Below, piece by piece: positions 21,451 to 40,187 of a stretch of DNA of 64,000 nucleotides. The notes beneath the pieces are model-generated. The model ran no database searches and was not told the origin of the DNA. It was given only the letters and a program-made list of their open reading frames with translations. The position numbers and the translations under genes were made by a program. The first letter of the stretch is position 1. Each line of letters starts with the position of its first letter. Origin of the DNA: a virus; IMG/VR virus record IMGVR_UViG_3300024999_000038, positions 86,269 to 150,268 of that record; one strand, 5' to 3'.

Positions 21451-21597
21451 GAACACAAGGTAAATCAAAAAATACATAAGTTAAATATTAAAGGATGTGA
21501 AAATAAATGTGGGTAAGAGGTCATACATAACTAAGCAAATTTATTTCAATTACTAATCACATTGAATCATAAAATAAATATATTGGAGGAATTAAAA

Positions 21598-23706
21598 ATG
21601 GATTTTAAAGAATTTAAAGCACTGCAACAAAAACACGTTTCCGAAATGTTAAAAAATGCTACTCACTTATTTGAGGTTGGTTTAAACAAAGATGCTTTAT
21701 ATGACCTGTATTTATCGAGTTTCCCACCAGGAACGAATGAAATGTTTAGAAATAGAAGAGAATTTGATTGTGGTTGTTGTAGACAATTCATTAAAAATAT
21801 TGGAAATGCAGTTATTACCAAAGACAACAAAATTACAACTATTTGGGACTTTGAAACAAATGATTCAACATTTCAACCAGTAATTAATGCTCTATCAAAA
21901 TACATTAAATCTCAAGTTGTTTCAGATATTTATGTCACTAAGTTTAAAAAGATTGGAACTGATAAGAATTTTGAAAAAGGTGTAAACGGAGGAATAACTG
22001 AATGGCAACACTTTTTTCTTGAACTGCCTAGTAAATTTGTTGATACAAGTGGAAAATCAGAAGGAGATATCAAAGGTGGTTATAGGGATACAAGAAATGT
22101 ATTCAAAAGATCATTAGATGAAATTACTGAAGAAAGTTTACTTACTGTATTAGAGCTTATTTCTCAGAACAGTTTATATAAAGGAGAAGAATGGAAAGCA
22201 GTATTAAATGAGTTTCTTAAATATAAGAAAGCATATGATAAACTCAAAACTAATAAAGCAAAAGAAATTTATGCTTGGGAGCAATCTGTAAAAGTTGGTG
22301 GTTCTATCGGAAGAATTAAAAACCATTCAATTGGAACATTGCTTATCAATATCAGCGAAGGAATGGATTTAGATTTGGCAGTTAAGAAATATGAAGCGAT
22401 TGTGGCTCCGTTGAACTATAAGCGTCCAAAGGCTATATTCACCAAGAAAATGCTAGAAGATGCTAAGAAAACAATTCAAGAATTAGGATATATGGATTCA
22501 TTAAATCGTAGATTTGCTACACTTGATGATATTACTGTGAACAATATCTTATTCTCAAATAAAGATTCTGCCAAAAGAATAAATGGTTTAGATATTTTTG
22601 ATGAAATGACTAGCAATATTCCTGTTAATCCTAAAAAATTCTCTAAGGTTGAAGAAGTTTCTATTGATAATTTTATCAAGGATATTTTACCTACAGCAAA
22701 AGAATTAGAGGTATTTCTAGAGAATAAACATGCGAGCAATATGGTATCTTTAATCGCTCCTGAGAATAAGGATTCAAAAACAATGTTTAAGTGGGATAAT
22801 TGTTTCAGTTGGGCATACTCAGGAAATATCACAGATTCAGACTTGACAGAAAGAGTAAAAGCTGCAGGAGGAAGAGTTGATGGTGTTTTAAGATTTTCTC
22901 ACAGTTGGAATTACGATGGTATGAGAAATGGTTCATTAATGGATTTACACGTATTTATGCCAGGATCAAGTCAATCAGTAACTATGAAAAGTGGTAAAGA
23001 AATACATGATAATTATGGCAATGATAAAAGAGTCGGTTGGAATCATAGAAATAATTATGAGTCTGGAGGTGTTCAAGATGTAGATTATGTAAATATTGCT
23101 CCAGTTGGATATATTCCAGTAGAAAATATTACTTTTCCATTAATAGATAGACTAAAGGAAGGAATCTATATATTTAAAATTCATAATTGGAGTTTAAGAC
23201 AACCTACAACGGGTGGATTTAAAGCGGAAATAGCATTTGGTGGACAAGTGTATAAATTTGAAAGAAAAGAACCACTGGGGCATAAAGAATGGATTACTTT
23301 AGCAAAATTAGAACTTAAAAATGGAGAATTTAAAATATTGGAAATGATGGAAAATGACACAGTACCAATCGAAGTTTGGGGAATTAAAACCCATCAATTT
23401 ATTCCGGTTTCAGTTGTTTGTAATTCTCCTAATTATTGGAATGAGCAACAAGGCATTGGACACAAACATTATATGTTCATGTTAAAGAATTGTATCAATT
23501 CAGAATTGCCAAATGGATTCTTCAATGAGTTCTTAAAACAAGATTTAGTTCAACATAAAAAAGTATTTGAGGCATTAGGTGCAAAAATGGCGGTTAAAGA
23601 TGTTAATGACCAACTTAGTGGAGTTGCATTCAGTTCAACCAAGAGAAACGAATTGTTAGTTAAAGTTAAAGGGCAAACAGAAAGAGTAGTCAAAATTAAA
23701 TTCTAA
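21598..23706 (+). CDS. Large phage protein of unknown function with an internal YfaP/DUF2135-like segment
   Basis: About 702 aa from the RBS-supported ATG 21598; N-terminal CGCC; LRFSHSWN..MDLHV..QDVD..PVENITF segment. Confidence 0.55.
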   Translation: MDFKEFKALQQKHVSEMLKNATHLFEVGLNKDALYDLYLSSFPPGTNEMFRNRREFDCGCCRQFIKNIGNAVITKDNKITTIWDFETNDSTFQPVINALSKYIKSQVVSDIYVTKFKKIGTDKNFEKGVNGGITEWQHFFLELPSKFVDTSGKSEGDIKGGYRDTRNVFKRSLDEITEESLLTVLELISQNSLYKGEEWKAVLNEFLKYKKAYDKLKTNKAKEIYAWEQSVKVGGSIGRIKNHSIGTLLINISEGMDLDLAVKKYEAIVAPLNYKRPKAIFTKKMLEDAKKTIQELGYMDSLNRRFATLDDITVNNILFSNKDSAKRINGLDIFDEMTSNIPVNPKKFSKVEEVSIDNFIKDILPTAKELEVFLENKHASNMVSLIAPENKDSKTMFKWDNCFSWAYSGNITDSDLTERVKAAGGRVDGVLRFSHSWNYDGMRNGSLMDLHVFMPGSSQSVTMKSGKEIHDNYGNDKRVGWNHRNNYESGGVQDVDYVNIAPVGYIPVENITFPLIDRLKEGIYIFKIHNWSLRQPTTGGFKAEIAFGGQVYKFERKEPLGHKEWITLAKLELKNGEFKILEMMENDTVPIEVWGIKTHQFIPVSVVCNSPNYWNEQQGIGHKHYMFMLKNCINSELPNGFFNEFLKQDLVQHKKVFEALGAKMAVKDVNDQLSGVAFSSTKRNELLVKVKGQTERVVKIKF

Positions 23707-28058: not shown

Positions 28059-28490
28059 ATGCAAGTAGTAAATAAAGTTGCACAACATAATCAACCACAA
28101 CAATTTAATAGAGGAGACATTTACTTAGCTACAGTTGAAAATAATGTCGGAGGGTCAGTGCAAAATATTTGTCAGAGACCAATGATTATAATTTCAAATC
28201 CTATGAGTTTACTGCACTCGCCTGTGATTCACGCAATTCCATTATCTTCTAAGACTTTTAAGCGATGGATTCCAACTCACGTTTCTGTACCTATGGCTAG
28301 TAGTGGTTTATTAAAGGATTCAATTGCACTTTGCGAACAAGTAATGTTGCTCCCGAAAGAGGTTTTTAGTAAAAAAATTGGCACATGCAGTAGTTTAATT
28401 GTAAACAAATTAGAAGAGGGTTTAATGGTACAATTCGGGTTGTTTAATCATAGTCAAAATGTAAGAAACAATGTTGCTTATGCAAATTAA
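28059..28490 (+). CDS. MazF/PemK family protein (orphan, divergent)
   Basis: RGDIYLA, QRPMIIISN, IPLSS, PTHVSV, GLLKDSIALCEQV align with B. subtilis NdoA/EndoA motifs; no MazE upstream. Confidence 0.88.
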   Translation: MQVVNKVAQHNQPQQFNRGDIYLATVENNVGGSVQNICQRPMIIISNPMSLLHSPVIHAIPLSSKTFKRWIPTHVSVPMASSGLLKDSIALCEQVMLLPKEVFSKKIGTCSSLIVNKLEEGLMVQFGLFNHSQNVRNNVAYAN

Positions 28491-28512
28491 AGAAGGAGAG
28501 ATTATTTAAATA

Positions 28513-30111
28513 TTGGGGAAAATGAAAACTACAGAACAGTATAGACAAGATTTAGAAGAATACAATTTAAAATATAATACAAAAATAGAGTTAAAGAATG
28601 GAGTTGAATATAATGGTGCTAATACTAAAATATTACATATTTGTTCGTGTGGTAAAGAGTGGTTAGTTTCACCTTCAGGCGTTATAAATAGTAGTTCGAA
28701 AACAAGTTGTGGTTATACGTTTGCAGAAAAAGGAATCGATAATCTAGGGTATAATTTTTTAGAAAAATATTGGGATTATAAAACAAATAACGAATTAGGA
28801 ATTGATCCTTGGAAAATTAGTTGTAGTTCTGGAAAAGAAGTTTATATATTTTGCCAAGAGAAAGATTATCATGGAAGTTATAAAGTACGTTGTGCTGATT
28901 TTAGTAATGGAAACAGGTGTGGTTATTGTCAAGGATACTATTTGGTTCATCCTTTAGATAGTTATGGACAGTATTTAATTGATTCATTTGGAATAACCGC
29001 ACTAGAACTGTATTGGGATTATAATATAAACACTGTTGATCCTTGGAAGATTACAAAACAATCAAATAAGATGGTATATATTAAATGTCAGAGGAAATAT
29101 TATCATGGAAGTTATGGCATCAGGTGCAATGATTTTATAAAAGGAGATAGATGTGGATATTGTGGAGGTAAAAAAGTACATCTATTAGATAGTCTAGGAA
29201 CGTTACATCCAAAATCACTAGAATTATGGTCAAATATAAACGAAAAATCCCCATATGAATATATGCCTGGGAGCGATATGGAGGTTTGGTTTAAATGTGA
29301 CAACAAGAGACATGAAGATTACCAAAAAAGAATATATAATGCAGTAAACTGTAATTTTGGATGTCCGACATGTTCACAAGAACAAAAAGAATCTATCATG
29401 GCCTCCACACTAAAACAAGTACTAAGATATGAATATAGTCACACAAAATGGGAATATGATGCAGGATTTAAAATAGATAATAGTATTAGTAGGTATGATA
29501 TTTATGTTCCAGAATTGAATAACTTATTAATAGAATGCCAAAGTGAATATCACGATGATGAAAAACATATTATTAACGATCAACTTAAAAAACAGTTTGC
29601 TATTGATAATGGATATGAATATATAGCAATAGACAAAAGAGATTTTTCCATAATAGAAATACTAAGGTTCTTTATACCATACATGGATAAAATTCCTGAT
29701 TATGTACAATTAAATAAAAATACTACAAGAGGTTGGGATATAGAAAACGCTCAAAAATTGTTAGATAGTGGTCATACATATATAAATATAGCTAATATAT
29801 TAGAAACATCAGTTACCGCGATACGTGCAAGTGTAGGAGACAATGGGTTAATCAAACCAAATAATTATACTTTTCAAGGTGAAAATATTGTTTGTCTGTC
29901 TATGGATAATAGTTTAATAAAAACATATAATTCTTGCAGTTCTGCCGCCAAAGATTTAGGAAAAGCAAATGGAACAAGTATTAGTTCATGTCTAACTAAG
30001 AAGCCTCGTTCAGACACAGGGAAAATTCGTGAAACAGCTTTTGGTTTTAAATGGATGTATTTAGTAGATTATGAAAATATGATTAAAGATCAAAATAATA
30101 AACCTCCGTAA
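28513..30111 (+). CDS. Putative homing endonuclease: zinc-ribbon repeats, PD-(D/E)xK nuclease, NUMOD1-like tail
   Basis: Three repeats of WDY..N..DPWKI...C...YHGSY..RC.DF..G.RCGYC; YDIYVPELNNLLIECQSEYH; C-terminal YNSCSSAAKDLG...TAFGFKWMY. Confidence 0.75.
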   Translation: MGKMKTTEQYRQDLEEYNLKYNTKIELKNGVEYNGANTKILHICSCGKEWLVSPSGVINSSSKTSCGYTFAEKGIDNLGYNFLEKYWDYKTNNELGIDPWKISCSSGKEVYIFCQEKDYHGSYKVRCADFSNGNRCGYCQGYYLVHPLDSYGQYLIDSFGITALELYWDYNINTVDPWKITKQSNKMVYIKCQRKYYHGSYGIRCNDFIKGDRCGYCGGKKVHLLDSLGTLHPKSLELWSNINEKSPYEYMPGSDMEVWFKCDNKRHEDYQKRIYNAVNCNFGCPTCSQEQKESIMASTLKQVLRYEYSHTKWEYDAGFKIDNSISRYDIYVPELNNLLIECQSEYHDDEKHIINDQLKKQFAIDNGYEYIAIDKRDFSIIEILRFFIPYMDKIPDYVQLNKNTTRGWDIENAQKLLDSGHTYINIANILETSVTAIRASVGDNGLIKPNNYTFQGENIVCLSMDNSLIKTYNSCSSAAKDLGKANGTSISSCLTKKPRSDTGKIRETAFGFKWMYLVDYENMIKDQNNKPP

Positions 30112-30162
30112 TCAATACATAAATTCTAATAATAAATAATAAAAGGAGAGATAATATAATAA

Positions 30163-30780
30163 ATGGTTGAAACATTAATATTTAGTCTGCTGTGTCTAAA
30201 AACAAAATTTGATCTAAAACTAGGCAAACTCCAAATACATAAAGAATCATACCTAATAAAACCAATGCTAAAAAGATGGAGCATCTATCCTGTAATATTT
30301 ATGTCAATATTCTATGTCTATCTACAATACACAATAATGAATCAGAATTACTATTTTCTTCAATATCAACACATAATAAAGAATGCTATATTAGGTTCAT
30401 ATATGATTCTAGGGCTTGATGTTTTGTTTAGGCATGAAAAGTATAAAGAGTATATTATAGCCTGTTGTAGTCTCTTGTGTGGCTTTACATTGAATAAGAT
30501 TGTAATGCATTTCAATAATAATCTCATGCCAATCTTCCCATCAATATCTTATTCAACAGGTTACACGCAATATGGTATGATTACGAATGCTTCTAAATTT
30601 AGCGATTTTCATGTTCTCGGAGATCATACAACAAGATTGATATTTTTGGCCGATGTGTTTGATATAGGTGGTAGCATTTGGTCGGTCGGGGATATTTTAG
30701 TTAGATTATTTGCTTTTATAATTGTGTATTATGCGGGTAAAGTAGTTAGTAAAATGCATACGAACAAAATATTGAATTAA
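30163..30780 (+). CDS. DUF5317-like membrane protein
   Basis: GFTLNKIVMHFNNNLMPI and HVL...TRLIFLADVFD...SVGDIL motifs; several hydrophobic helices. Confidence 0.7.
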   Translation: MVETLIFSLLCLKTKFDLKLGKLQIHKESYLIKPMLKRWSIYPVIFMSIFYVYLQYTIMNQNYYFLQYQHIIKNAILGSYMILGLDVLFRHEKYKEYIIACCSLLCGFTLNKIVMHFNNNLMPIFPSISYSTGYTQYGMITNASKFSDFHVLGDHTTRLIFLADVFDIGGSIWSVGDILVRLFAFIIVYYAGKVVSKMHTNKILN

Positions 30781-30796
30781 TAAATAAATATAAAGC

Positions 30797-30825
30797 TTGC
30801 ATTACACTCTTACATATGGTATACT
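30797..30825 (+). promoter_or_regulatory. sigmaA-like promoter for receptor-1/agrD
   Basis: TTGCAT-17 bp-TATACT with extended TG. Confidence 0.7.
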
Positions 30826-30865
30826 TGTTTTAGATTAAGAAACGAATAAGAAAGAGGTAATACAT

Positions 30866-31687
30866 ATGCAGAGTGTAACAAATGCTTTGTTGAATACAGT
30901 ATTTGTAAGTTTACCAGAGGAAACATTTTACGCAATGATGACATTGATATTTTTGAAAAGATATGATCTATTAGATTTTAGAATGTGGAAAGAAAACATT
31001 ACAACACTTATGATACCTATAATTCCAGTATCAATATTAATTAATATATTTAGATATATTATAATTATAGATAAAATACAAATGATGATTATTACAATAG
31101 TGATATTTTACATATTGTTATTATATATTGTTATAAAATATAAAGTTGAAGATATTGAAAGAATACATATGAAAGTTTTATTAAACTTAGCATATAGCGT
31201 AGCAATATGGGTGTTCTTAGAAGAGATAACCTATCCATCATTATTGTTTTTGATGAATTACCCACTCGAATTTATATCAAATAATATATTTTGGAATTTT
31301 ATTTTAAGTGTTCCTTCAAGGATAATTGCTATGGTTATAATAATATACAACATAGTTAAAAATAGTAACGAAATAAGCAATATAGAAGTTCTTGACGTCA
31401 TTACTAATAATAAACTTTATCGAAGAATAATGCTTTTCTGCACAATGTCATTTATTTTATTATCATTATTCTTAATTAAACTTATTTGGTGTAATAAAAT
31501 ATTTGACAATAAGGTTCCTTTGTTTGAAAAGATTATTATTACTGAATCGCTTTTTGTTTTGCCAGTAGTTGTAATATTCCTAATAATTATATTAATCAAC
31601 AATCTTCTTGTAAAAGAAAAACAAATACAACAGTCTTATGAAAATCTTGTTATGCAAGACGACATAATGCTTGATGTAGAAGATTGA
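30866..31687 (+). CDS. Polytopic membrane protein, putative kinase-less peptide receptor 1
   Basis: About 7 hydrophobic segments; directly upstream of the agrD-like gene; ends EKQIQQSYENLVMQDDIMLDVED with no HisKA/HATPase; paralog of 33689-34552. Confidence 0.6.
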   Translation: MQSVTNALLNTVFVSLPEETFYAMMTLIFLKRYDLLDFRMWKENITTLMIPIIPVSILINIFRYIIIIDKIQMMIITIVIFYILLLYIVIKYKVEDIERIHMKVLLNLAYSVAIWVFLEEITYPSLLFLMNYPLEFISNNIFWNFILSVPSRIIAMVIIIYNIVKNSNEISNIEVLDVITNNKLYRRIMLFCTMSFILLSLFLIKLIWCNKIFDNKVPLFEKIIITESLFVLPVVVIFLIIILINNLLVKEKQIQQSYENLVMQDDIMLDVED

Positions 31688-31709
31688 TATGAAAGGAGGT
31701 GAAAAATTA

Positions 31710-31826
31710 ATGAAAAAGTACGCAATTATCGCTGGAGTGGTTGCTTTGTCAGCCGCAATGTTCTCAAATGTATTTGCTTCTATGTTCTTTTCTCATCAAC
31801 CAAAAACTCCTAATTGCATGAAATAA
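31710..31826 (+). CDS. agrD: AgrD-like cyclic lactone autoinducer propeptide, 38 aa (MKKYAIIAGVVALSAAMFSNVFASMFFSHQPKTPNCMK); not in the ORF track
   Basis: Strong RBS GAAAGGAGGTG; hydrophobic leader; x-x-F-F-x-HQP-K-x-P motif as in clostridial AgrD (CLWFT|HQPEEP, CPWII|HQPKVP); agrB 1 kb downstream. Confidence 0.88.
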   Translation: MKKYAIIAGVVALSAAMFSNVFASMFFSHQPKTPNCMK

Positions 31827-31838
31827 TTTTACCATACA

Positions 31839-31868
31839 TATAGGGAAGGACTTCGGTTCTTCCCTATA
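31839..31868 (+). terminator. Hairpin after agrD with cUUCGg tetraloop
   Basis: TATAGGGAAGGAC-TTCG-GTTCTTCCCTATA, 13-bp stem with one G-U. Confidence 0.8.
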
Positions 31869-31908
31869 AATCTAATATAAAATATTTTATAAATTTACTA
31901 AAAATCTA

Positions 31909-31936
31909 TTGACATATCTCCCAAATATGGTAAGAT
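31909..31936 (+). promoter_or_regulatory. sigmaA-like promoter for HTH-MazF/agrB
   Basis: TTGACA-16 bp-TAAGAT with extended TG. Confidence 0.65.
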
Positions 31937-32003
31937 GTATTTAATGAAGTTGTAAATAAATTATATATACATCATTATAAATTGAAAAGGGAGTTGTGTT
32001 ATT

Positions 32004-32792
32004 ATGTTTGAAAAATTTATTGGTAAAAAAGAGAGTACTATTACTGAGGAGAATACAAAAAAGGATTTCAAAAAGTTGGCTACATATGTTACTTTAGCCA
32101 AAGGCCCAAGAACTATTAATGGATTCGCAGCAGACTGCAAAACAAATGCTGACTATCTAGCTGATATTATCCATGTAAAAATCAATTCTTATCCTCAAGT
32201 TCAATTTCTGAAAATAATATCTGAAAATTCACAAGGCAGAGTTTCATTAGATGATCTTAAATTATCTTGTGGATATTCTTTATATGAACATAATGATATG
32301 GAGCAAATAAAAAATATTAATGTTCGCAGAGGATGGTTTTGTTACGTAAATCTAGGCCAAGTTTTGGACTCGGAATATGGGGGAAATCGAATGTGTTTGG
32401 TAGTGCAAAACGACGTAGGGAATCATTTCTCAAGCACATCAATTATTTTACCATTGACTTCTAGAAAATCAAAAGTAAAGCTTCCTACTCACGTCGAAGT
32501 TGGAATAAAAAATTGCGGATTACCGCAAGATTCGATTGTTAGTTGTGAGCAAATTCGTTGCGTATCGAAAAGGAGACTTATTCAAAATGGAATAGTCCAG
32601 AAAGTATCAGAATGTCCTCCAGATGTAATGTTAAAGGTAGAGGTGGCTTTATTAAAAGCACAAGGAGTTATACATCTTAAAATGAATGAACAGGAAGCTA
32701 TTCAGCACTTAATGAACATGAATACCCAAAAAACATACCAGTATCAAAATAATTATGCTAGTGCAGGACAGCAGGTGGCCTATGCACGATAA
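32004..32792 (+). CDS. XRE-like HTH fused to a MazF/PemK endoribonuclease domain
   Basis: N-terminal AKGPRTINGFAADC...YLADII..P...LKIISENSQGRVSLDDLK..CGY HTH-like segment; C-terminal RRG, SEYGGNR, QNDVGNHFS, PLTS, KLPTHVEV, DSIVSCEQIRCVSKRRL with catalytic Arg and Thr positions retained. Confidence 0.85.
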   Translation: MFEKFIGKKESTITEENTKKDFKKLATYVTLAKGPRTINGFAADCKTNADYLADIIHVKINSYPQVQFLKIISENSQGRVSLDDLKLSCGYSLYEHNDMEQIKNINVRRGWFCYVNLGQVLDSEYGGNRMCLVVQNDVGNHFSSTSIILPLTSRKSKVKLPTHVEVGIKNCGLPQDSIVSCEQIRCVSKRRLIQNGIVQKVSECPPDVMLKVEVALLKAQGVIHLKMNEQEAIQHLMNMNTQKTYQYQNNYASAGQQVAYAR

Positions 32793-32808
32793 AAGAAAGG
32801 AAGATTAA

Positions 32809-33516
32809 ATGTTTTCAGTTCAAGATATTTCTGATCAATTGGCTACTAAACTATCAAAAAAAATATCATTAGATAAATTTAAAGAAGTTTGGGGGATCGT
32901 TATAAAAATATTCCCATCACTTGCTGATAAGCTTAATCTTGAACAAATAAAATCAATAAATGACTTATTAGGTTTATATAGTTATGGGATAACGGTATTT
33001 GTAGGATTACTATTCAAAGGCCCATTATTGATTATAATATCAATTATCTTTGGAATATTTACACCAATTATGTTTGTGGTAACCACATTTTCAAGTTTTA
33101 GGGTTGTAGCAGGTGGTTACCATATGCAGACATATTTAAGGTGTTGGATTGTAAGTTTTGTCACATTTATTGGATCTGCACTTATAGTCCAACACACACT
33201 TCAATATTGGTCTACCCAAAATATCTCTTCACTCTTCATATTTTGTATTTTAATGGGATTATATATAATTTTTAGATATATTCCTCGCGACACACCCAAT
33301 AAGCCAATTACAGAGCCATTGGAGATAGCAAAGTTTAAAAAATGGTCGTTATACTACTTAATTTCATGGGTAACAATAATGACCATTTTCTTATTCTTTA
33401 ATCTAAAATTAATTGTTATTTCAAGTTGTTTTGGATTATTATTGGAATTATTTTCAATAAGTAAAATTGGTTATAGTCTATATTCCCTTGTAGATGATAT
33501 TGGTATACATAAATAA
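32809..33516 (+). CDS. agrB: AgrB family peptide-processing membrane cysteine peptidase
   Basis: YSYG, FRVVAGGYHMQTYLRC (catalytic His/Cys), PRDTPNKPI; multiple TM helices. Confidence 0.93.
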   Translation: MFSVQDISDQLATKLSKKISLDKFKEVWGIVIKIFPSLADKLNLEQIKSINDLLGLYSYGITVFVGLLFKGPLLIIISIIFGIFTPIMFVVTTFSSFRVVAGGYHMQTYLRCWIVSFVTFIGSALIVQHTLQYWSTQNISSLFIFCILMGLYIIFRYIPRDTPNKPITEPLEIAKFKKWSLYYLISWVTIMTIFLFFNLKLIVISSCFGLLLELFSISKIGYSLYSLVDDIGIHK

Positions 33517-33688
33517 TATCTCACAAACCACCTTACTATCCCACCTTATCCCATAATTGCAATACTTTATTCAATTTATTTTTCCAACATTTATGATATA
33601 TTTACAGCAACAAGTAATAGCACATAATAACTGCCCCTTACTCAAACCACACCCACAAACTAAATAAAAAGAAGGAAGGAAACCCTAT

Positions 33689-34552
33689 ATGTCTATTACC
33701 AATGCTGTACTAAATCTACTATTTGTCTCCATCCCAGAAGAAGCATTTATAGCAATAATAGCTATAACATTCCTAAATAAACTAGATAATCTTTTCGATA
33801 TCTATATGTGGAAGAACAATCTCAAATGGCTTATGATAGCAACATTGCCCACATCAATATTAATTTGTGTTTTACGATTTGTAATGTCTGTTCCCCAAAA
33901 TATTGTAGTAAAATTAGCCATAATTATAATGATTGCTTCAATGATATACATAGTAATTAAAAACTCTGACAAAATTACTATTCTATTAATATTTAAAACA
34001 GCAATGTTTACATTAGCAGGATTTGTAATTACAGGAATATTGGAATACTCATATTGCCCAATAATATTCTCATTATTACATAAACCACAAGAATTTTTTA
34101 ATAATGTTTTCCTCTATAATTTTCTATTAGGTTTACCTGCAAGAGTCCTTTACACCTGTATTATCACTTTTATCATAATGAAGAAAAATGGCAAAGTTAA
34201 AGTAAATTTATTTGATACTTTAGTCAAAAGCAAATTAATCATTGGTATTTTCATTGCTACAATATTATCTGTAGTTTCATTAATTGCCTATGTTGCTAAA
34301 TTGATAGAAAATGAAAGCATTTTGTTTAGTTTTCAATTCATTGATCAATTTATTATCATTGTAATAATCACATCTGTACCAACTATTTTAATCACATTGT
34401 TATTGATAGTTATTAATTATTTAATATCAGGTGAGAAGGAAAATCAGCAAATGTACGAGAATGCTATGGGTAGTAGGGATGAGAATGAGGATATAAATGA
34501 GGATGGTAATAATAGTAGCGATGAAGATATTTATGAAAATTATTATGAATAA
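33689..34552 (+). CDS. Polytopic membrane protein, putative kinase-less peptide receptor 2
   Basis: Paralog of 30866-31687 (S.TNA.LN..FVS.PEE.F, D..MWK.N, LE...Y.P, N...NF.L..P.R, EK..QQ.YEN); highly acidic C-terminal tail; no kinase domain. Confidence 0.6.
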   Translation: MSITNAVLNLLFVSIPEEAFIAIIAITFLNKLDNLFDIYMWKNNLKWLMIATLPTSILICVLRFVMSVPQNIVVKLAIIIMIASMIYIVIKNSDKITILLIFKTAMFTLAGFVITGILEYSYCPIIFSLLHKPQEFFNNVFLYNFLLGLPARVLYTCIITFIIMKKNGKVKVNLFDTLVKSKLIIGIFIATILSVVSLIAYVAKLIENESILFSFQFIDQFIIIVIITSVPTILITLLLIVINYLISGEKENQQMYENAMGSRDENEDINEDGNNSSDEDIYENYYE

Positions 34553-34723
34553 TTATTATAAATAGGAGGCGATAATAATGCTCTAAAAATAGTTCCAAAG
34601 CACTAAGACTATTGACCTATATCAAATGGCAATATTCCTATTCTAATAAATAAATAAGATAAAACAATGTCGAAAAACCGAACATAACATCCCAAAATAA
34701 CATAATTATTGGTAATTTTGTTC

Positions 34724-34752
34724 TTGATTCTTGAACAAATGTTCTATATAAT
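34724..34752 (+). promoter_or_regulatory. sigmaA promoter with a Firmicutes LexA (Cheo) box in its spacer
   Basis: TTGATT(34724)-17 bp-TATAAT(34747); GAAC-AAAT-GTTC at 34733-34744. Confidence 0.72.
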
Positions 34753-34833
34753 AATATCAAGGAGGTATTGAAAGAACAAAGATATAATTTGTTGAATATC
34801 CAAATATTAGAAAATAAAGGAGAGATTTTAAAT

Positions 34834-35241
34834 ATGAATTGTATTAAAACAGAAGACAATGTGAGATATACATGGGCCATCAAAGATTCAAAAGGTAATT
34901 TTGCCCATAAGGGCAGTATACGTAAAATCAATAAAGATACTTGGCAATACATATCGTTTAAGACATTCTCCCAAGAAGCTAGGGGATACACATCCAAGGA
35001 ATCTGCTGAAAAAGCATTGGCTTTCTTAAATAAAAAGAATGACATTGCAGGATTCAAATTTGTTTTTCATATTGAGTGTCTTAACTTAAATAAAATAATT
35101 GATGAAAACACCATATTCCAAGGTAAAAATATGCTTATATATGAAAAAGAAGTGGTATCAGCTGCTTATAAAATGGGAAAAGTGGCAAAAACATGTGTCT
35201 GTACATGTTTACCAACTCTAATATTAGCCAGTATAATTTAA
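34834..35241 (+). CDS. Hypothetical protein under a putative SOS-controlled promoter (candidate antirepressor/inducer)
   Basis: RBS AAAGGAG before ATG 34834 (the track start TTG 34768 has only about 2 nt SD spacing); no known domain recognised. Confidence 0.5.
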   Translation: MNCIKTEDNVRYTWAIKDSKGNFAHKGSIRKINKDTWQYISFKTFSQEARGYTSKESAEKALAFLNKKNDIAGFKFVFHIECLNLNKIIDENTIFQGKNMLIYEKEVVSAAYKMGKVAKTCVCTCLPTLILASII

Positions 35242-35257
35242 TTAATTAACTCCACGC

Positions 35258-35300
35258 ACAATAAACTACTCTGAGATCATGTCACTGAGTAGTTTATTGT
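35258..35300. repeat. Perfect 14-bp inverted repeat (terminator or operator) before the yopQ-like promoter
   Basis: ACAATAAACTACTC-15 nt-GAGTAGTTTATTGT. Confidence 0.7.
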
Positions 35301-35319
35301 AGAAATAAAGTATTTTTCC

Positions 35320-35349
35320 TTGACATTATTGCACAACTCATGTTATTAT
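35320..35349 (+). promoter_or_regulatory. sigmaA-like promoter of the yopQ/yopR-like repressor operon
   Basis: TTGACA-18 bp-TATTAT with extended TG. Confidence 0.65.
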
Positions 35350-35381
35350 ATATACATTAATGATGTGAAGGAGAGATATTT

Positions 35382-36752
35382 ATGCTTAAAGAAAAATCGG
35401 TTGCACTCATGAGGGAACTAAATGTGTTAATTAAGAAGTATAGTTCAAACGACAAGGTAAGAAAATTAATTGTAGAAGAATTTGATAAAAGAAATATGAA
35501 GGGCAGTTTAGCGGTCGGCATCTTAAATGAAAATAGAGAGCTATCCACATTAGATATTGATGAAAGCAAAGATGTAATAATGTTATTTATTTTCACTATG
35601 AGTATGTATAATGCATTGACATATAAAGAGGAAGAAGATAAAGAGGCGTTGGGAGAAATTGAAGAAGGGTTAAGAATTGATCCTAAAAATTATTTTACTG
35701 AAATTGAAATTGAAAACCTAAATGACTATAAGTTTGAAAAGAAAATAGACAAAAAAGACGAAGTTATTATTTTCCCCAAAATGAGTAGAATTGCCCCTGA
35801 TTTCTTTTCAGGCTATATGTCAGGAAAGCATTTTGCAGAATTAGATGCAGGAAATGAATTTATCTATAATTTTAAGACTCAGCGTGACCCAATTATTGAT
35901 GTATCTGGAATGAAGAGGATACATTTAAATAAAACAAATGCAAAAGAAATTAGAGATGGCCTAATCTCAAAGAATCAATTCCCAACTACCATAGTAGTAA
36001 ATGTTCTTAAAGACGGTGAAGACGAGATATATTATGATGAGAAAACAGGCGATTTGTCTATTATTTCAGGTACTAAAAACCTTGTTGATGGAATGCATAG
36101 AAAAGTTGGTAATAGTTTGGCTCTCGCTATTGATCCAGACTTGGAGTTTAATTGGTTATTAGTTGTAACAAACTATAGTGAAATTAGAGCACAAAAATAT
36201 ATGGTGGAAATTAACAAGCAACAAAAAATGAAACAAGAACATATTAAAAATATGGATACTGCCAGTCTTGGAAATATTGTTGTTGATGTTATTAAAGATA
36301 TCAATAGTTCTGAATTTGCTGGACATATCAAAGATAGCGACAAGGAATTAGAACATGGAGGTTTAACTAGGAAGTCAATTTTAACTTTAGCAATTGAGGA
36401 AATATACAAAGATAAACTTGAAAACAAAACATTCATAAAACCTATCGCCAACCACATTACAAACGTTATGGATCATATTATTGCATTGAGAGTTGATGAG
36501 TTTATGAAATATCCTGAAGCCACACGTAAAGTAAGCTATATCAACCACAAGAATATGTTTGCAGGATATGTAGCTTTATCTGAGAGACTATATGGAGTTG
36601 AAAAATGGGATGACCTCCTTGAGGAAATTTTAGATAAAATTGATTTCAGTATGAAAAATTCTTTTTGGGAAGATATTGGATTGGGCAAAGAGTCCGATAT
36701 GAAGAAAACTACACGAAACAATCTATACGAATTCTTTCAAAAATTAATTTAA
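35382..36752 (+). CDS. SPbeta YopQ (SroE)-like protein with a DGQHR/DndB-like ParB-Srx domain
   Basis: RIDPKNYFTEIEI, IYNFKTQR, LNKTNAKEIRD, LVDGMHR and TNYSEIRAQ match the YopQ pattern as I recall it; about 460 aa; upstream of the YopR-like gene. Confidence 0.75.
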   Translation: MLKEKSVALMRELNVLIKKYSSNDKVRKLIVEEFDKRNMKGSLAVGILNENRELSTLDIDESKDVIMLFIFTMSMYNALTYKEEEDKEALGEIEEGLRIDPKNYFTEIEIENLNDYKFEKKIDKKDEVIIFPKMSRIAPDFFSGYMSGKHFAELDAGNEFIYNFKTQRDPIIDVSGMKRIHLNKTNAKEIRDGLISKNQFPTTIVVNVLKDGEDEIYYDEKTGDLSIISGTKNLVDGMHRKVGNSLALAIDPDLEFNWLLVVTNYSEIRAQKYMVEINKQQKMKQEHIKNMDTASLGNIVVDVIKDINSSEFAGHIKDSDKELEHGGLTRKSILTLAIEEIYKDKLENKTFIKPIANHITNVMDHIIALRVDEFMKYPEATRKVSYINHKNMFAGYVALSERLYGVEKWDDLLEEILDKIDFSMKNSFWEDIGLGKESDMKKTTRNNLYEFFQKLI

Positions 36753-36768
36753 CAAAGGAGACTTTAAA

Positions 36769-37812
36769 ATGACTAAAAATGAAATCATTGATGAAACTAA
36801 AATCCAAGAAGTCGAAGAAAAATTAATGTTTGAAGTTGATCCTGAAGTTAAGGAAGAATTTTTAGAAAAGCAATTAAAATCAACTAGAAGTTATTATCGG
36901 TATATTTTAAAACTTGCCGATGAATTTGAAGTTAAATTAGGAAAACCAATTTACAATTTCAATACTGAAGAAAGAGATGAGTTATTGACTGTTCAATATA
37001 AAAACAAAAATATATTTGCATTTCAAACTGTTTTGTCTCCATTAAAAACTTATGTTGATTTTTGTATATCTCCTAAGAATTTAGTACGACACAATGAAAA
37101 TCGCTTTAGTAGTATCCTTACTTCAAACTACAAAGTTTATATCAGTAAACAAGCAAAAGAAAATTCTTATATCCCTTTATCTGAATGTAGAGAATTTCAA
37201 TCTAAATTAGCGAATTATCAAGACATGTTAATTCTTGAATTGCCAAATCTAGGAGTTAGAGGTCGTACTGAAAAAGGAAATACTCTTGAGGAACTGGTTA
37301 ATCTAAGGGAAAAAGATATTGAATGGGAGAAAAAGAGATTACATCTTACCAAAAACAATGGTGAAGAAAGATGGATTGAAGTTGATGATTACACTTTAGA
37401 TTTACTCAAGAAAACCATCAATCAAGATTTTTATATATCCAATAATGGATTAAAGACAAAACCGAACGACGATGGGGTATATGAACGTACAGAAAGGGGA
37501 AGAATGATTAATAAAACTGAATATGTATTTAGAATTCCAGGTAAGAATAAACATGGTAAGGTTGAATACCAATTTTTTGCTAGTAGAATCCAACGTATTC
37601 AAAAATGGTTAGGTAAACCGTATATTAGCATTAGTAATCTGTATTTTTCTGCTATTATAGAATACTCAAAGAAACTAAAAGAAGAGAAAGGTGAATTGAT
37701 TAGAGAAGATTATATTTCAATCAATCAAAGATTTGAATTTGGAGAAGATGGTGAGAAATATGTCTTTAAAACTAGAGAGCTTGTTGAATCATATCTTGAC
37801 GATGAGAGGTAA
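36769..37812 (+). CDS. SPbeta YopR (SroF/MrpR)-like repressor with tyrosine-recombinase fold
   Basis: EVKEEFL, E..LGKPIYNF, LKTYVDFCI, LANYQDMLILEL..GVRG, EELVNL, NG.ERWIEV, Y...NG; canonical HxxR motif absent. Confidence 0.78.
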   Translation: MTKNEIIDETKIQEVEEKLMFEVDPEVKEEFLEKQLKSTRSYYRYILKLADEFEVKLGKPIYNFNTEERDELLTVQYKNKNIFAFQTVLSPLKTYVDFCISPKNLVRHNENRFSSILTSNYKVYISKQAKENSYIPLSECREFQSKLANYQDMLILELPNLGVRGRTEKGNTLEELVNLREKDIEWEKKRLHLTKNNGEERWIEVDDYTLDLLKKTINQDFYISNNGLKTKPNDDGVYERTERGRMINKTEYVFRIPGKNKHGKVEYQFFASRIQRIQKWLGKPYISISNLYFSAIIEYSKKLKEEKGELIREDYISINQRFEFGEDGEKYVFKTRELVESYLDDER

Positions 37813-37817
37813 ATACT

Positions 37818-38222
37818 ATGCAGAACACACTATCTGAGATGTGGAGAAAATACAATTTGCTTTTCTCTTTTAAAAATGAGATGAATAAACGAGGGTACGC
37901 TAGTAGGGATTTGTATAGTATCCATGTTCAATTATGTTTGTTAATGGAATTGATTGAAATCGAAAGTATTGATATCCTAGATGATTTGTTAAAGAAAAAA
38001 ACTTATTTCAGACTGTTGAGGAAAATCAATAGAGGTATTGAATATTTACATGAAATTGTAGATTTACCTGAGAATTGGTCACTTAACACTATTGAGAAAG
38101 ATACGGACGCATGGATTGATCCAAATGTTCTAATATTTACTACGAAATCAAAAGTTGCAGTATTCAGTAAATTGTCCCGTAAGAATGATGGAAGTTTGTA
38201 TATTGATGGAAAATTTCAATAA
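37818..38222 (+). CDS. Hypothetical protein in the repressor operon
   Basis: 134 aa, tightly coupled to the yopR-like gene. Confidence 0.6.
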   Translation: MQNTLSEMWRKYNLLFSFKNEMNKRGYASRDLYSIHVQLCLLMELIEIESIDILDDLLKKKTYFRLLRKINRGIEYLHEIVDLPENWSLNTIEKDTDAWIDPNVLIFTTKSKVAVFSKLSRKNDGSLYIDGKFQ

Positions 38223-38236
38223 GAGGTGTATTTTTT

Positions 38237-38644
38237 ATGAACGTAGGAGAAAAAATTTGCCTATACAAAGAAAGATTAAACTTTAGAGACTATCAAGAAT
38301 TTGGTAGAGCAGTTGGTATCAGTGGCAATTGGATAAATGAAACATCTAAGAAATCAGAGATTAAACAAATCAACGATTTAGGTTATTTGGTTAAATTATG
38401 TGGATTTTTAGGAATAACGATAGATGAATTTTTAAGAGATGATATAATTGAAACAGATGAATCAATTGAACTTAAAATTATTGATGCAAATTCGGAAGAT
38501 ATTGGTATTTTGCTCAATAATATGATATTATTACTAGGAAAGGATGGTATAAAAATAGACGGAGCGTTAATGAATGACAAGAGCAAAGAGATTTGTATAG
38601 ATAGCCTTGCGGTGGTAAGAACACTAGTCAAGCAACATTTATAA
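38237..38644 (+). CDS. XRE-family HTH transcriptional regulator (YopS position)
   Basis: GEKI..YKERLN...YQEFGRAVGISGNWINE...LVKLCGFLGITIDEFL. Confidence 0.75.
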   Translation: MNVGEKICLYKERLNFRDYQEFGRAVGISGNWINETSKKSEIKQINDLGYLVKLCGFLGITIDEFLRDDIIETDESIELKIIDANSEDIGILLNNMILLLGKDGIKIDGALMNDKSKEICIDSLAVVRTLVKQHL

Positions 38645-38659
38645 TGGAGGTCGATAATT

Positions 38660-39520
38660 ATGGTTCGAAAGAATTACAGGTCTGTAGACACATATGAGAT
38701 GGATGATATTGAAGTCTACTCATTAGTTAAAAATGGTAGTCTAAGGGCATTTCCTTCAAGGTTTTGGGAAGGTGTAATAGGTCTTCAAACTTCCAAGAAA
38801 ATTCTAAAATATGTTTTCGAAACTCTATTAAATTGGTCTATCGAAGACATCAAAGTTAAGGCCACTAGAGATATGTTTGAAGAATATAAATTAGTTGGAA
38901 TGGTTAGCACTGCATTTGATGGTAGTATGTATATTGCTATTGGAGAAACTTATCCAGAACTTAAAGAATGGGCAGATGAATTATATCAAACAAACGAACA
39001 TGCTGATTTTGTTTATAGGAAATATTCAGACGAAGAATTAATTGGTATTCTTCAGGAGAAAGCAAAGGAATTAAAAAGAATACCAAAAGGAGTTGATATG
39101 AAAACTCCCAGTAGTGGAATCTATAATAGAAGATTTGGCTCATGGGAAAAATCATTGATGAAAGCAGGATTAATTGAAGATATTTATAAGAATGTTGACT
39201 TTGAAAAACACTCAAAAGAATCTGTAATATCTAACTTAAAAGAACTTTTTTCAAACAAAGAGAGAGTGTTAGATAAGAAAGAGATACTTGCTATTTATCC
39301 AGAAGGATTAATAAAAGAATATTTTGGAACTTATAATAACCTTGAGAAAGTTATTATAAATGAGTATACCAAAAGGGATCTTATCAAAATCTTAAAAAAT
39401 AAGAAGGGAAAATTAGGTAGAACTCCAAGCAATAAAGATATGAAGTTTCCAATGGCTATTGTATTCATAGATAAATTTGGGAGTTGGCAGGAGGCGATTG
39501 ATAAATTGGAGAAAACTTAA
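38660..39520 (+). CDS. DUF4046-like protein with homing-endonuclease-associated repeats (putative DNA-binding)
   Basis: FPSRFWEG..LKYVFETLLNW N-terminus; repeated YS.EELI..L..KA..L.R.P...DM..P.....RFGSW units. Confidence 0.6.
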   Translation: MVRKNYRSVDTYEMDDIEVYSLVKNGSLRAFPSRFWEGVIGLQTSKKILKYVFETLLNWSIEDIKVKATRDMFEEYKLVGMVSTAFDGSMYIAIGETYPELKEWADELYQTNEHADFVYRKYSDEELIGILQEKAKELKRIPKGVDMKTPSSGIYNRRFGSWEKSLMKAGLIEDIYKNVDFEKHSKESVISNLKELFSNKERVLDKKEILAIYPEGLIKEYFGTYNNLEKVIINEYTKRDLIKILKNKKGKLGRTPSNKDMKFPMAIVFIDKFGSWQEAIDKLEKT

Positions 39521-39614: not shown

Positions 39615-40187
39615 ATGAGGAAAAATCCACTAAAGCATACTAAATTATTTGTCACATTTATTAGTGTGTTTATTCTCATAAGTAGTACAAATGGAAATCA
39701 TGTTATAAATAAAGATATAAAGAGTGTTAAACATATTAATAATTATGTAAGGAGTGATGTCTGTGAGACACTAAAGCAAATGAGAAAGCAATACATTGTG
39801 AAAGTAAAGCCAAAAGAAAAAGTAGTTACTAAGAAAGAAAATATATTTCTAGTCACAGTTTATGATCTTTCATTCCAGTCATGCCAGAAGTCAAGAGGCA
39901 ATTCTGAATATGGCATTACTGCTTCGGGATATGACTTGAGAGGCCACACATTATCGTCTGCTAGGATAATTTCTGTAGACCCTACTATTATATCGCTTGG
40001 AAGTAAAGTGAGGATTACATTCAAAGAAGATAAGTATAAGAAGTACAATGGAATCTATACGGCAAGCGATATTGGAGGTGGAATTAAAAATAATAAGATT
40101 GATTTGTTTGTTGGAGATAATATTTGGTCTAGAAAAAATATTAGAGATTTTGGAGTCAGGGAATGTGTTGTAGAAATAATCGAGTAA
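39615..40187 (+). CDS. Exported 3D-domain (peptidoglycan-acting) protein
   Basis: N-terminal signal/TM segment; ITASG, ISVDPTIISLGSKV, ASDIGGGIKNNKIDLF. Confidence 0.85.
   Translation: MRKNPLKHTKLFVTFISVFILISSTNGNHVINKDIKSVKHINNYVRSDVCETLKQMRKQYIVKVKPKEKVVTKKENIFLVTVYDLSFQSCQKSRGNSEYGITASGYDLRGHTLSSARIISVDPTIISLGSKVRITFKEDKYKKYNGIYTASDIGGGIKNNKIDLFVGDNIWSRKNIRDFGVRECVVEIIE

Follow-up and report, generated by a model that had tools for sequence, protein, structure and literature searches.

A candidate kinase-free cyclic-peptide communication cassette upstream of an SPbeta-type repressor pair in a groundwater phage

The final 64 kb (the window, 64,000 nucleotides) of one 150,268-bp virus record associated with a groundwater metagenome (IMGVR_UViG_3300024999_000038; linear, 28.5% G+C, about 71% complete) carries a cassette of genes for an Agr-type peptide signal (agrD, agrB), kinase-less transmembrane (TM) proteins and MazF-family proteins, lying upstream of homologues of the SPbeta repressor genes yopQ and yopR (Table 1). 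A first-pass annotation, made from the sequence alone, had taken this cassette for a phage communication system. All of its open reading frames (ORFs) are where it placed them, in the order it gave and on the + strand, and its AgrB, AgrD, MazF, YopQ and YopR assignments all pass family tests. No published description of an arrangement combining agrBD, a kinase-less TM protein, a helix-turn-helix (HTH)-MazF fusion and yopQ-yopR was found in the open-access literature. Because the record encodes a tyrosine recombinase elsewhere as well as the SPbeta-type pair (YopQ, or SroE, and the integrase-fold YopR, or SroF), the phage is probably temperate. Its host is not fixed, since no integrated prophage was seen in 399 Clostridia genomes, YopQ-like matches in two of these being DndB-like genes in other contexts; the named chromosomal relatives closest to its candidate receptor come from Ruminiclostridium and related Clostridia.

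Searches with TM, AgrB, YopQ and YopR recovered about 100 phage-type loci; no relatives of TM1 or AgrB were found among INPHARED phages. In the YopR-anchored set, which describes this phage family, yopQ-yopR is preceded by the cassette in 18 of the 19 distinct phages that were informative (one further contig was too short to inform), so that the proposed linkage of agr genes to yopQ/yopR holds in these relatives. TM, agrD, a hairpin and HTH-mazF form the fixed core, and agrB lies behind HTH-mazF in some loci and ahead of DUF5317 in others; wherever sequence downstream of agrD is available in the phage loci, HTH-mazF nearly always comes after it. MazF1, DUF5317, TM2 and the endonuclease vary among relatives. 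In locus L012 (3228-4022), about 800 bp resembling a mobile-element remnant stands in place of the TM-agrD-HTH-mazF-agrB core, and mazF1 and DUF5317 remain. Neutral hitch-hiking of host DNA would fit such a loss of the agr core (L012/L214); it is nevertheless very improbable and largely refuted by conservation, since dozens of phages that have diverged to TM identities as low as 24% still have the whole cassette, with catalytic residues kept and with co-variation of peptide ring and receptor.

Table 1. Features of the locus (positions in the window)
Feature	Position	Strand	Evidence
MazF1, stand-alone MazF/PemK, accessory	28059..28490	+	Pfam PemK E=6e-15; PDB MazF 4e-13
Homing-endonuclease-like insertion, outside the system	28513..30111	+	phrog_559 HNH 2e-26
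DUF5317 membrane protein	30163..30780	+	Pfam E=5e-17
TM1, ~7 membrane helices, kinase-less, candidate cognate peptide receptor	30866..31687	+	adjoins agrD; ring co-variation; host kinase fusion
agrD pre-peptide, 38 amino acids (aa)	31710..31826	+	TIGR04223 22.4 bits, cut-off 19
Predicted lactone ring Ser24-Met-Phe-Phe-Ser28	31779-31793	+	register of C. thermocellum lactone
13-bp hairpin 3' of agrD, without U-tract	31839..31868	+	-19.4 kcal/mol, z -4.9
SigmaA-type promoter-like site, HTH-mazF-agrB	31909..31936	+	TTGACA-16-TAAGAT with TG
HTH-MazF fusion, candidate output	32004..32792	+	Pfam PemK (residues 109-217) E=3e-22; PDB EndoA 1e-21
AgrB, peptide-processing enzyme	32809..33516	+	Pfam 4.7e-35
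TM2, orphan receptor paralogue, accessory	33689..34552	+	32% identical to TM1
LexA (SOS) box	34733..34744	.	sole perfect GAAC-N4-GTTC of 150-kb record
SOS-boxed ORF, 135 aa, candidate antirepressor (Sar analogue)	34834..35241	+	identity tracks YopR
Hairpin before yopQ-yopR promoter-like site	35258-35299		z -3.5
SigmaA-type promoter-like site, yopQ-yopR	35320..35349	+	11/12 consensus with TG
YopQ/SroE homologue (DndB-like)	35382..36752	+	tblastn to SPbeta yopQ 1e-13; reciprocal 1e-22
YopR/MrpR/SroF-type master repressor homologue	36769..37812	+	Pfam MrpR_N_CB 4e-13; PDB 9rd5 8e-12, MrpR 8a0a 1e-5
Conserved 134-aa ORF	37818..38222	+	no family match; after YopR in related phages too
Possible XRE-like regulator, weak	38237..38644	+	phrog_8 E=0.0019; no Pfam match

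The AgrD sequence matches the pattern of a Clostridium thermocellum pre-peptide that gives rise to a serine lactone pentapeptide, confirmed by mass spectrometry (PMC5322536); from this match, cleavage after Ala23 and an S-M-F-F-S lactone are predicted for the phage peptide. Rings are diverse, with 41 different ones in 49 loci (35 Ser-initial, 6 Cys-initial), and none is held in common with 47 host rings.

TM1, directly upstream of agrD in the related loci, is modelled as all-helical with a short C-terminal helix. It has no Pfam, NCBIfam or PHROG match, and fold searches gave nothing meaningful (none at E<=0.001 with Foldseek; best Z 7.9 with VIA). A test for co-variation, suggested with the first-pass annotation, shows that the ring tracks this agrD-adjacent protein. 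Where the DUF5317 proteins of two loci share 75% identity or more, TM1 is 94% identical for equal rings and 70, 55, 47 and 47% identical at one to four ring differences; against ring distance, TM1 gives a partial correlation of -0.48 (an indicative p of 5e-4), HTH-MazF -0.08 and DUF5317 -0.05. YopQ does not track the ring. Simple linkage is insufficient as an explanation, since between the window and locus L001, which have different rings, the agrD leader separating TM1 from the ring is 95% identical and TM1 itself 42% (DUF5317 83%, HTH-MazF 82%, TM2 84%). In one host locus, L165, the TM domain is fused to a HisKA_3/HATPase kinase (146 bits), behind agrD and before a NarL-type regulator. Together with chromosomal family members encoded directly before agrD, the co-variation and this fusion support a receptor role, and it is plausible that the TM domain is a peptide sensor. 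The lack of a kinase appears to be the normal state of the family, none of the best 150 of 235 profile hits exceeding 326 aa; a word search, a weak test, gave no longer fused forms, the L165 fusion having come from the genome search.

Of the two membrane receptors originally proposed, then, TM1 behaves as a cognate receptor and TM2 as an accessory orphan: the latter does not track the ring, has no peptide gene of its own and is absent from many relatives. Its clade is nested among the receptors of S-W-L rings (support 98 in a quick tree by the Shimodaira-Hasegawa-like approximate likelihood ratio test, SH-aLRT), and it may be a duplicated receptor that reads competitors' peptides, an eavesdropper. 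Some phages carry a second TM and a second HTH-MazF gene behind the main cassette (L025:5773-6549, L058:8916-9689), which suggests duplication of whole receptor-effector units.

The claimed absence of a kinase, an AgrA/LytTR regulator and AimR extends beyond the window to the 150-kb record (71% complete), in which searches for HATPase_c, HATPase_c_5, REC and LytTR domains were empty, SPbeta AimR found no match by tblastn or phmmer, and no cognate AgrC/AgrA pair was found. HATPase_c was likewise lacking in four complete relatives.

The kinase-less TM-agrD(-XRE) module cannot be called an invention of phages, for Acetivibrionales have it on their chromosomes too. There TM lies directly before agrD in nearly all inspected loci, and a kinase lies within 1.5 kb in one of 68. 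Many of these host loci (L104-L132, L137-L180) have a kinase-less TM-agrD pair, with or without agrB and often with an XRE neighbour, in tandem arrays in L179 and L180; L165 (2567-7443) holds a TM-like gene, agrD, two kinases that carry the same sensor domain, a NarL-type regulator and a peptidase C39 ABC exporter. In the quick tree, a branch with SH-aLRT 93 separates phage TMs from host TMs, and the host proteins carry an extra helical tail that the phage proteins lack. The idea that this tail is a His-less dimerization and histidine phosphotransfer (DHp) domain was set aside, its likeness to the SpoOB-type DHp helix pair being weak (hhalign 15.6 against at most 11.7 in 30 shuffles, probability 3%) and no SPOB_a Pfam match being found.

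Because the module is also chromosomal, the signal could take a host route: it would enter a two-component pathway of the host when the truncated TM partners or obstructs one of the cell's histidine kinases, an orphan sporulation kinase for instance, and the MazF genes would have a separate action. The use of the TM domain as kinase input in L165, the faint DHp likeness of the host tail and the proposal that phage phiCDHM1 borrows a host regulator (PMC3901668) speak for such a route; it is unlikely, however, given that the tail is missing in phage TMs, that a nearby kinase is so rare in host loci and that HTH-MazF so regularly follows agrD in the phages. The chromosomal distribution also speaks for the possibility that the cassette adjusts the physiology of the host when lysogens are dense (growth arrest, dormancy, sporulation) and does not itself decide between lysis and lysogeny. 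Growth is slower with 50 uM of the C. thermocellum lactone (PMC5322536), and AgrD1 promotes C. difficile sporulation (PMC11210211), as this possibility would lead one to expect; with no phage ring equal to a sampled host ring, phage and host TMs on separate branches and strict linkage to sroEF, it seems decidedly unlikely.

If TM1 is the receptor, the HTH-MazF fusion is a candidate for its output. Both phage MazF domains keep the positions that are catalytic (Arg and Thr) in B. subtilis MazF: MazF1 has R40 and S63 there (R in 30/31 and S/T in 30/31 homologues), and HTH-MazF keeps R129 and T152 (R129 in 40/44, T/S152 in 44/44). The fusion consists of an XRE-like part (residues ~20-95) and MazF (106-220). 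Its HTH has no Pfam match, and the assignment comes from homology to host XRE proteins: with a hidden Markov model of the N-terminal part, the XREs beside host TM-agrD rank at the top of 1325 host ORFs (1e-14 to 9e-12), so that HTH-MazF resembles the XRE protein that neighbours the receptor, extended by a MazF domain. Both MazF proteins had been proposed as effectors; HTH-MazF stands as a fixed partner, and MazF1 does not, since it does not track the ring and is absent in L006, L020 and L021. No operator repeat was found. No small upstream MazE-type antitoxin ORF was seen in the locus, although no dedicated MazE family search was run.

With two MazF domains and no MazE gene evident in the locus, the cassette might also serve kin discrimination or superinfection defence, the phage's own ring keeping prophage MazF quiet and MazF restricting non-kin phages or elements. 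MazEF restricts lytic phi3T and SPbeta mutants, and the extreme ring diversity and receptor swapping would suit such a role. Arbitrium peptides are likewise highly diverse, so ring diversity does not discriminate, and a fixed place beside repressor genes is what would suit a life-cycle switch; we regard the defence role as improbable.

The homing-endonuclease-like gene is variously present, absent, swapped or moved among relatives. DUF5317 has invariant N111, N118, D167, S174, G176 and D177, is absent in L009 and L020, and gives a confident structure model without a fold match; its resemblance to LspA is at motif level only, and the suggestion that it is an LspA-like (signal peptidase II-like) leader peptidase gained no support from the fold search, LspA not being among the top matches. 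The hairpin 3' of agrD, initially called a terminator, is strong and is kept with altered stem sequences across loci, though it lacks a U-tract; it is a candidate terminator or mRNA end stabiliser. The TTGACA of the promoter-like site before HTH-mazF-agrB is kept in most relatives.

Downstream, yopQ and yopR are the only genes of the six-gene sro operon present: sroA-D (YopM-P) have no significant match in the record, nor do SPbeta YopS and YopT, and there is no gene between the promoter-like site at 35320 and yopQ. Related loci (L198-L204, L219-L229) hold at least four YopQ/YopR types (24-89% identity) in free combination with peptide types; cassette and repressor types are freely shuffled by recombination. 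The LexA-boxed ORF had been correctly recognised, and its SOS box found, but its start is most likely at 34834. An SOS box lies upstream of 14 of 43 homologues, against a background of 1.4%; identity of this ORF correlates with that of YopR (r 0.87) and not with that of TM1 (r 0.06), and it relocates behind yopR when the repressor type changes. Sar antirepressors are also SOS-boxed and co-evolve with SroF (10.1101/2025.11.27.690993). The 135-aa protein shares these two traits, but it is basic (pI 9.3 against 4.3 for the acidic YopT) and has no sequence similarity to YopT. The XRE label given to the final ORF is weakly supported. Conserved behind the repressor genes are an HNH-associated-repeat protein (38660-39520) and a 3D-domain, cell-wall hydrolase-like protein (39615-40187); at 21562-23706 the window also encodes a 714-aa protein of the conserved phage family phrog_1735 (E 3e-256).

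Lysogeny of phi3T is promoted by free host MazF, which is under arbitrium control, and the MazE binder comes from the phi3T_92-97/yopM-R operon (PMC10769878). Since sroA-D are missing here and the phage brings its own MazF, replacement of the host MazF circuit would fit. On balance we lean, though not strongly, towards a kinase-free cyclic-peptide phage communication system that acts through HTH-MazF on the choice between lysis and lysogeny, the role of MazF in that decision being suggested by position and by analogy with phi3T. AgrB would cyclise AgrD, and the lactone pentapeptide would leave the cell, as family membership and the C. thermocellum example suggest. TM1 would bind the ring with strain specificity, as its co-variation with the ring and the fusion of its domain to a kinase suggest. 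Having no kinase, and a tail of only about 30 residues, TM1 would most likely signal by direct protein contact, the simplest route, holding or releasing HTH-MazF. Released HTH-MazF might then act on DNA, cut RNA, or both; its activity would favour lysogeny or block induction at high phage density, like host MazF in phi3T, and SroE/SroF would maintain the prophage. The LexA-boxed ORF would add a separate DNA-damage input, and TM2 may respond to peptides made by competitor phages.

Several observations weigh against this proposal. The YopR-anchored search was seeded from cassette-bearing phages and therefore describes one family, one member of which (L012/L214) has kept yopQ-yopR and lost the agr core; the locus pairs behind the co-variation p value are not independent, many coming from one groundwater site. 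Cassette type and repressor type are uncorrelated (r -0.01), so there is no direct receptor-repressor pairing. No bias in the UACAU motif was seen (16 against 14.9 in the cassette, 145 against 137.5 in the rest of the genome), and SPbeta lysogenisation is independent of MazF (10.1101/2023.04.27.537455). The TM family has matches in 53 of 149 Acetivibrionales genomes, so that transmission through host proteins is conceivable; by a rough pattern, only 26 of 68 host loci have an XRE gene next to them.

A wider proposal, held more tentatively and rated a little below even, is that this is a second, independently evolved phage lysis/lysogeny communication system with a signalling route not described before, in which a kinase-less cyclic-peptide receptor directly controls an XRE-family partner (MazF-fused in the phage) and an orphan receptor hears competitors, the same family being the missing receptor of orphan Acetivibrionales agrD genes. 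Among systems by which phages both produce and sense a signal of their own, arbitrium is, to our knowledge, the only one that is well characterised. If a non-homologous system occupies the same slot, an SPbeta-type repressor core is able to take its communication input from more than one kind of system, and phage communication would extend to anaerobic Clostridia. The TM family members are candidate receptors for orphan clostridial agrD genes, and so offer a testable receptor family for clostridial agrBD loci without AgrC/AgrA, a problem of long standing; cultured Ruminiclostridium species have chromosomal members, on which binding and output are open to experiment even though the phage is uncultured.

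Among known systems, the orphan AgrD of C. thermocellum (Clo1313_2818; PMC5322536) has the same pattern (Ala|Ser-x3-X, then aromatic/His and Gln-Pro), a serine lactone and no known AgrC/AgrA, but is chromosomal. Brevibacillus phages Abouo, Davies and Emery (PMC3901668, PMC4168068) have agr-like genes; in Abouo, as in the cassette, agrB, a short peptide gene and the gene of a kinase-less membrane protein of 222 aa lie near the regulators. Abouo gp44 is unlike the present TM family, however, no MazF is annotated and the phage is small (45 kb). Canonical agr (AgrBDCA) and the agr3 locus of phiCDHM1 (PMC3901668) share AgrB and AgrD, a membrane protein beside agrD and, in the latter case, phage carriage. 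They differ in that the cassette has no kinase domain or AgrA, its TM protein has no detectable similarity to phiCDHM1 AgrC, and the annotated stretch of phiCDHM1 has no MazF or sro link; with no AgrC/AgrA found, the cassette is Agr-type in its signal but not canonical agr. The closest parallel in layout is arbitrium with sroA-F in SPbeta and phi3T (PMC10769878; 10.1101/2025.11.27.690993), where signalling genes also lie just upstream of yopQ-yopR, peptides are diverse, MazF is in the circuit and a LexA-boxed small gene tracks the repressor. The corresponding slot of SPbeta is taken by aimR-aimP and yopM-P; in the Staphylococcus SPbeta-like phage and in Perkons an integrase-like gene precedes yopQ-yopR, with no annotated agr genes. 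Arbitrium uses an imported linear peptide, the cytoplasmic AimR and host MazEF, whereas the cassette has a cyclic AgrD/AgrB peptide, a membrane sensor and phage-encoded MazF, with no match to sroA-D, AimR or YopT. The cassette is thus arbitrium-like by position and likely logic, yet not a member of that system, lacking AimR and having instead a cyclic peptide.

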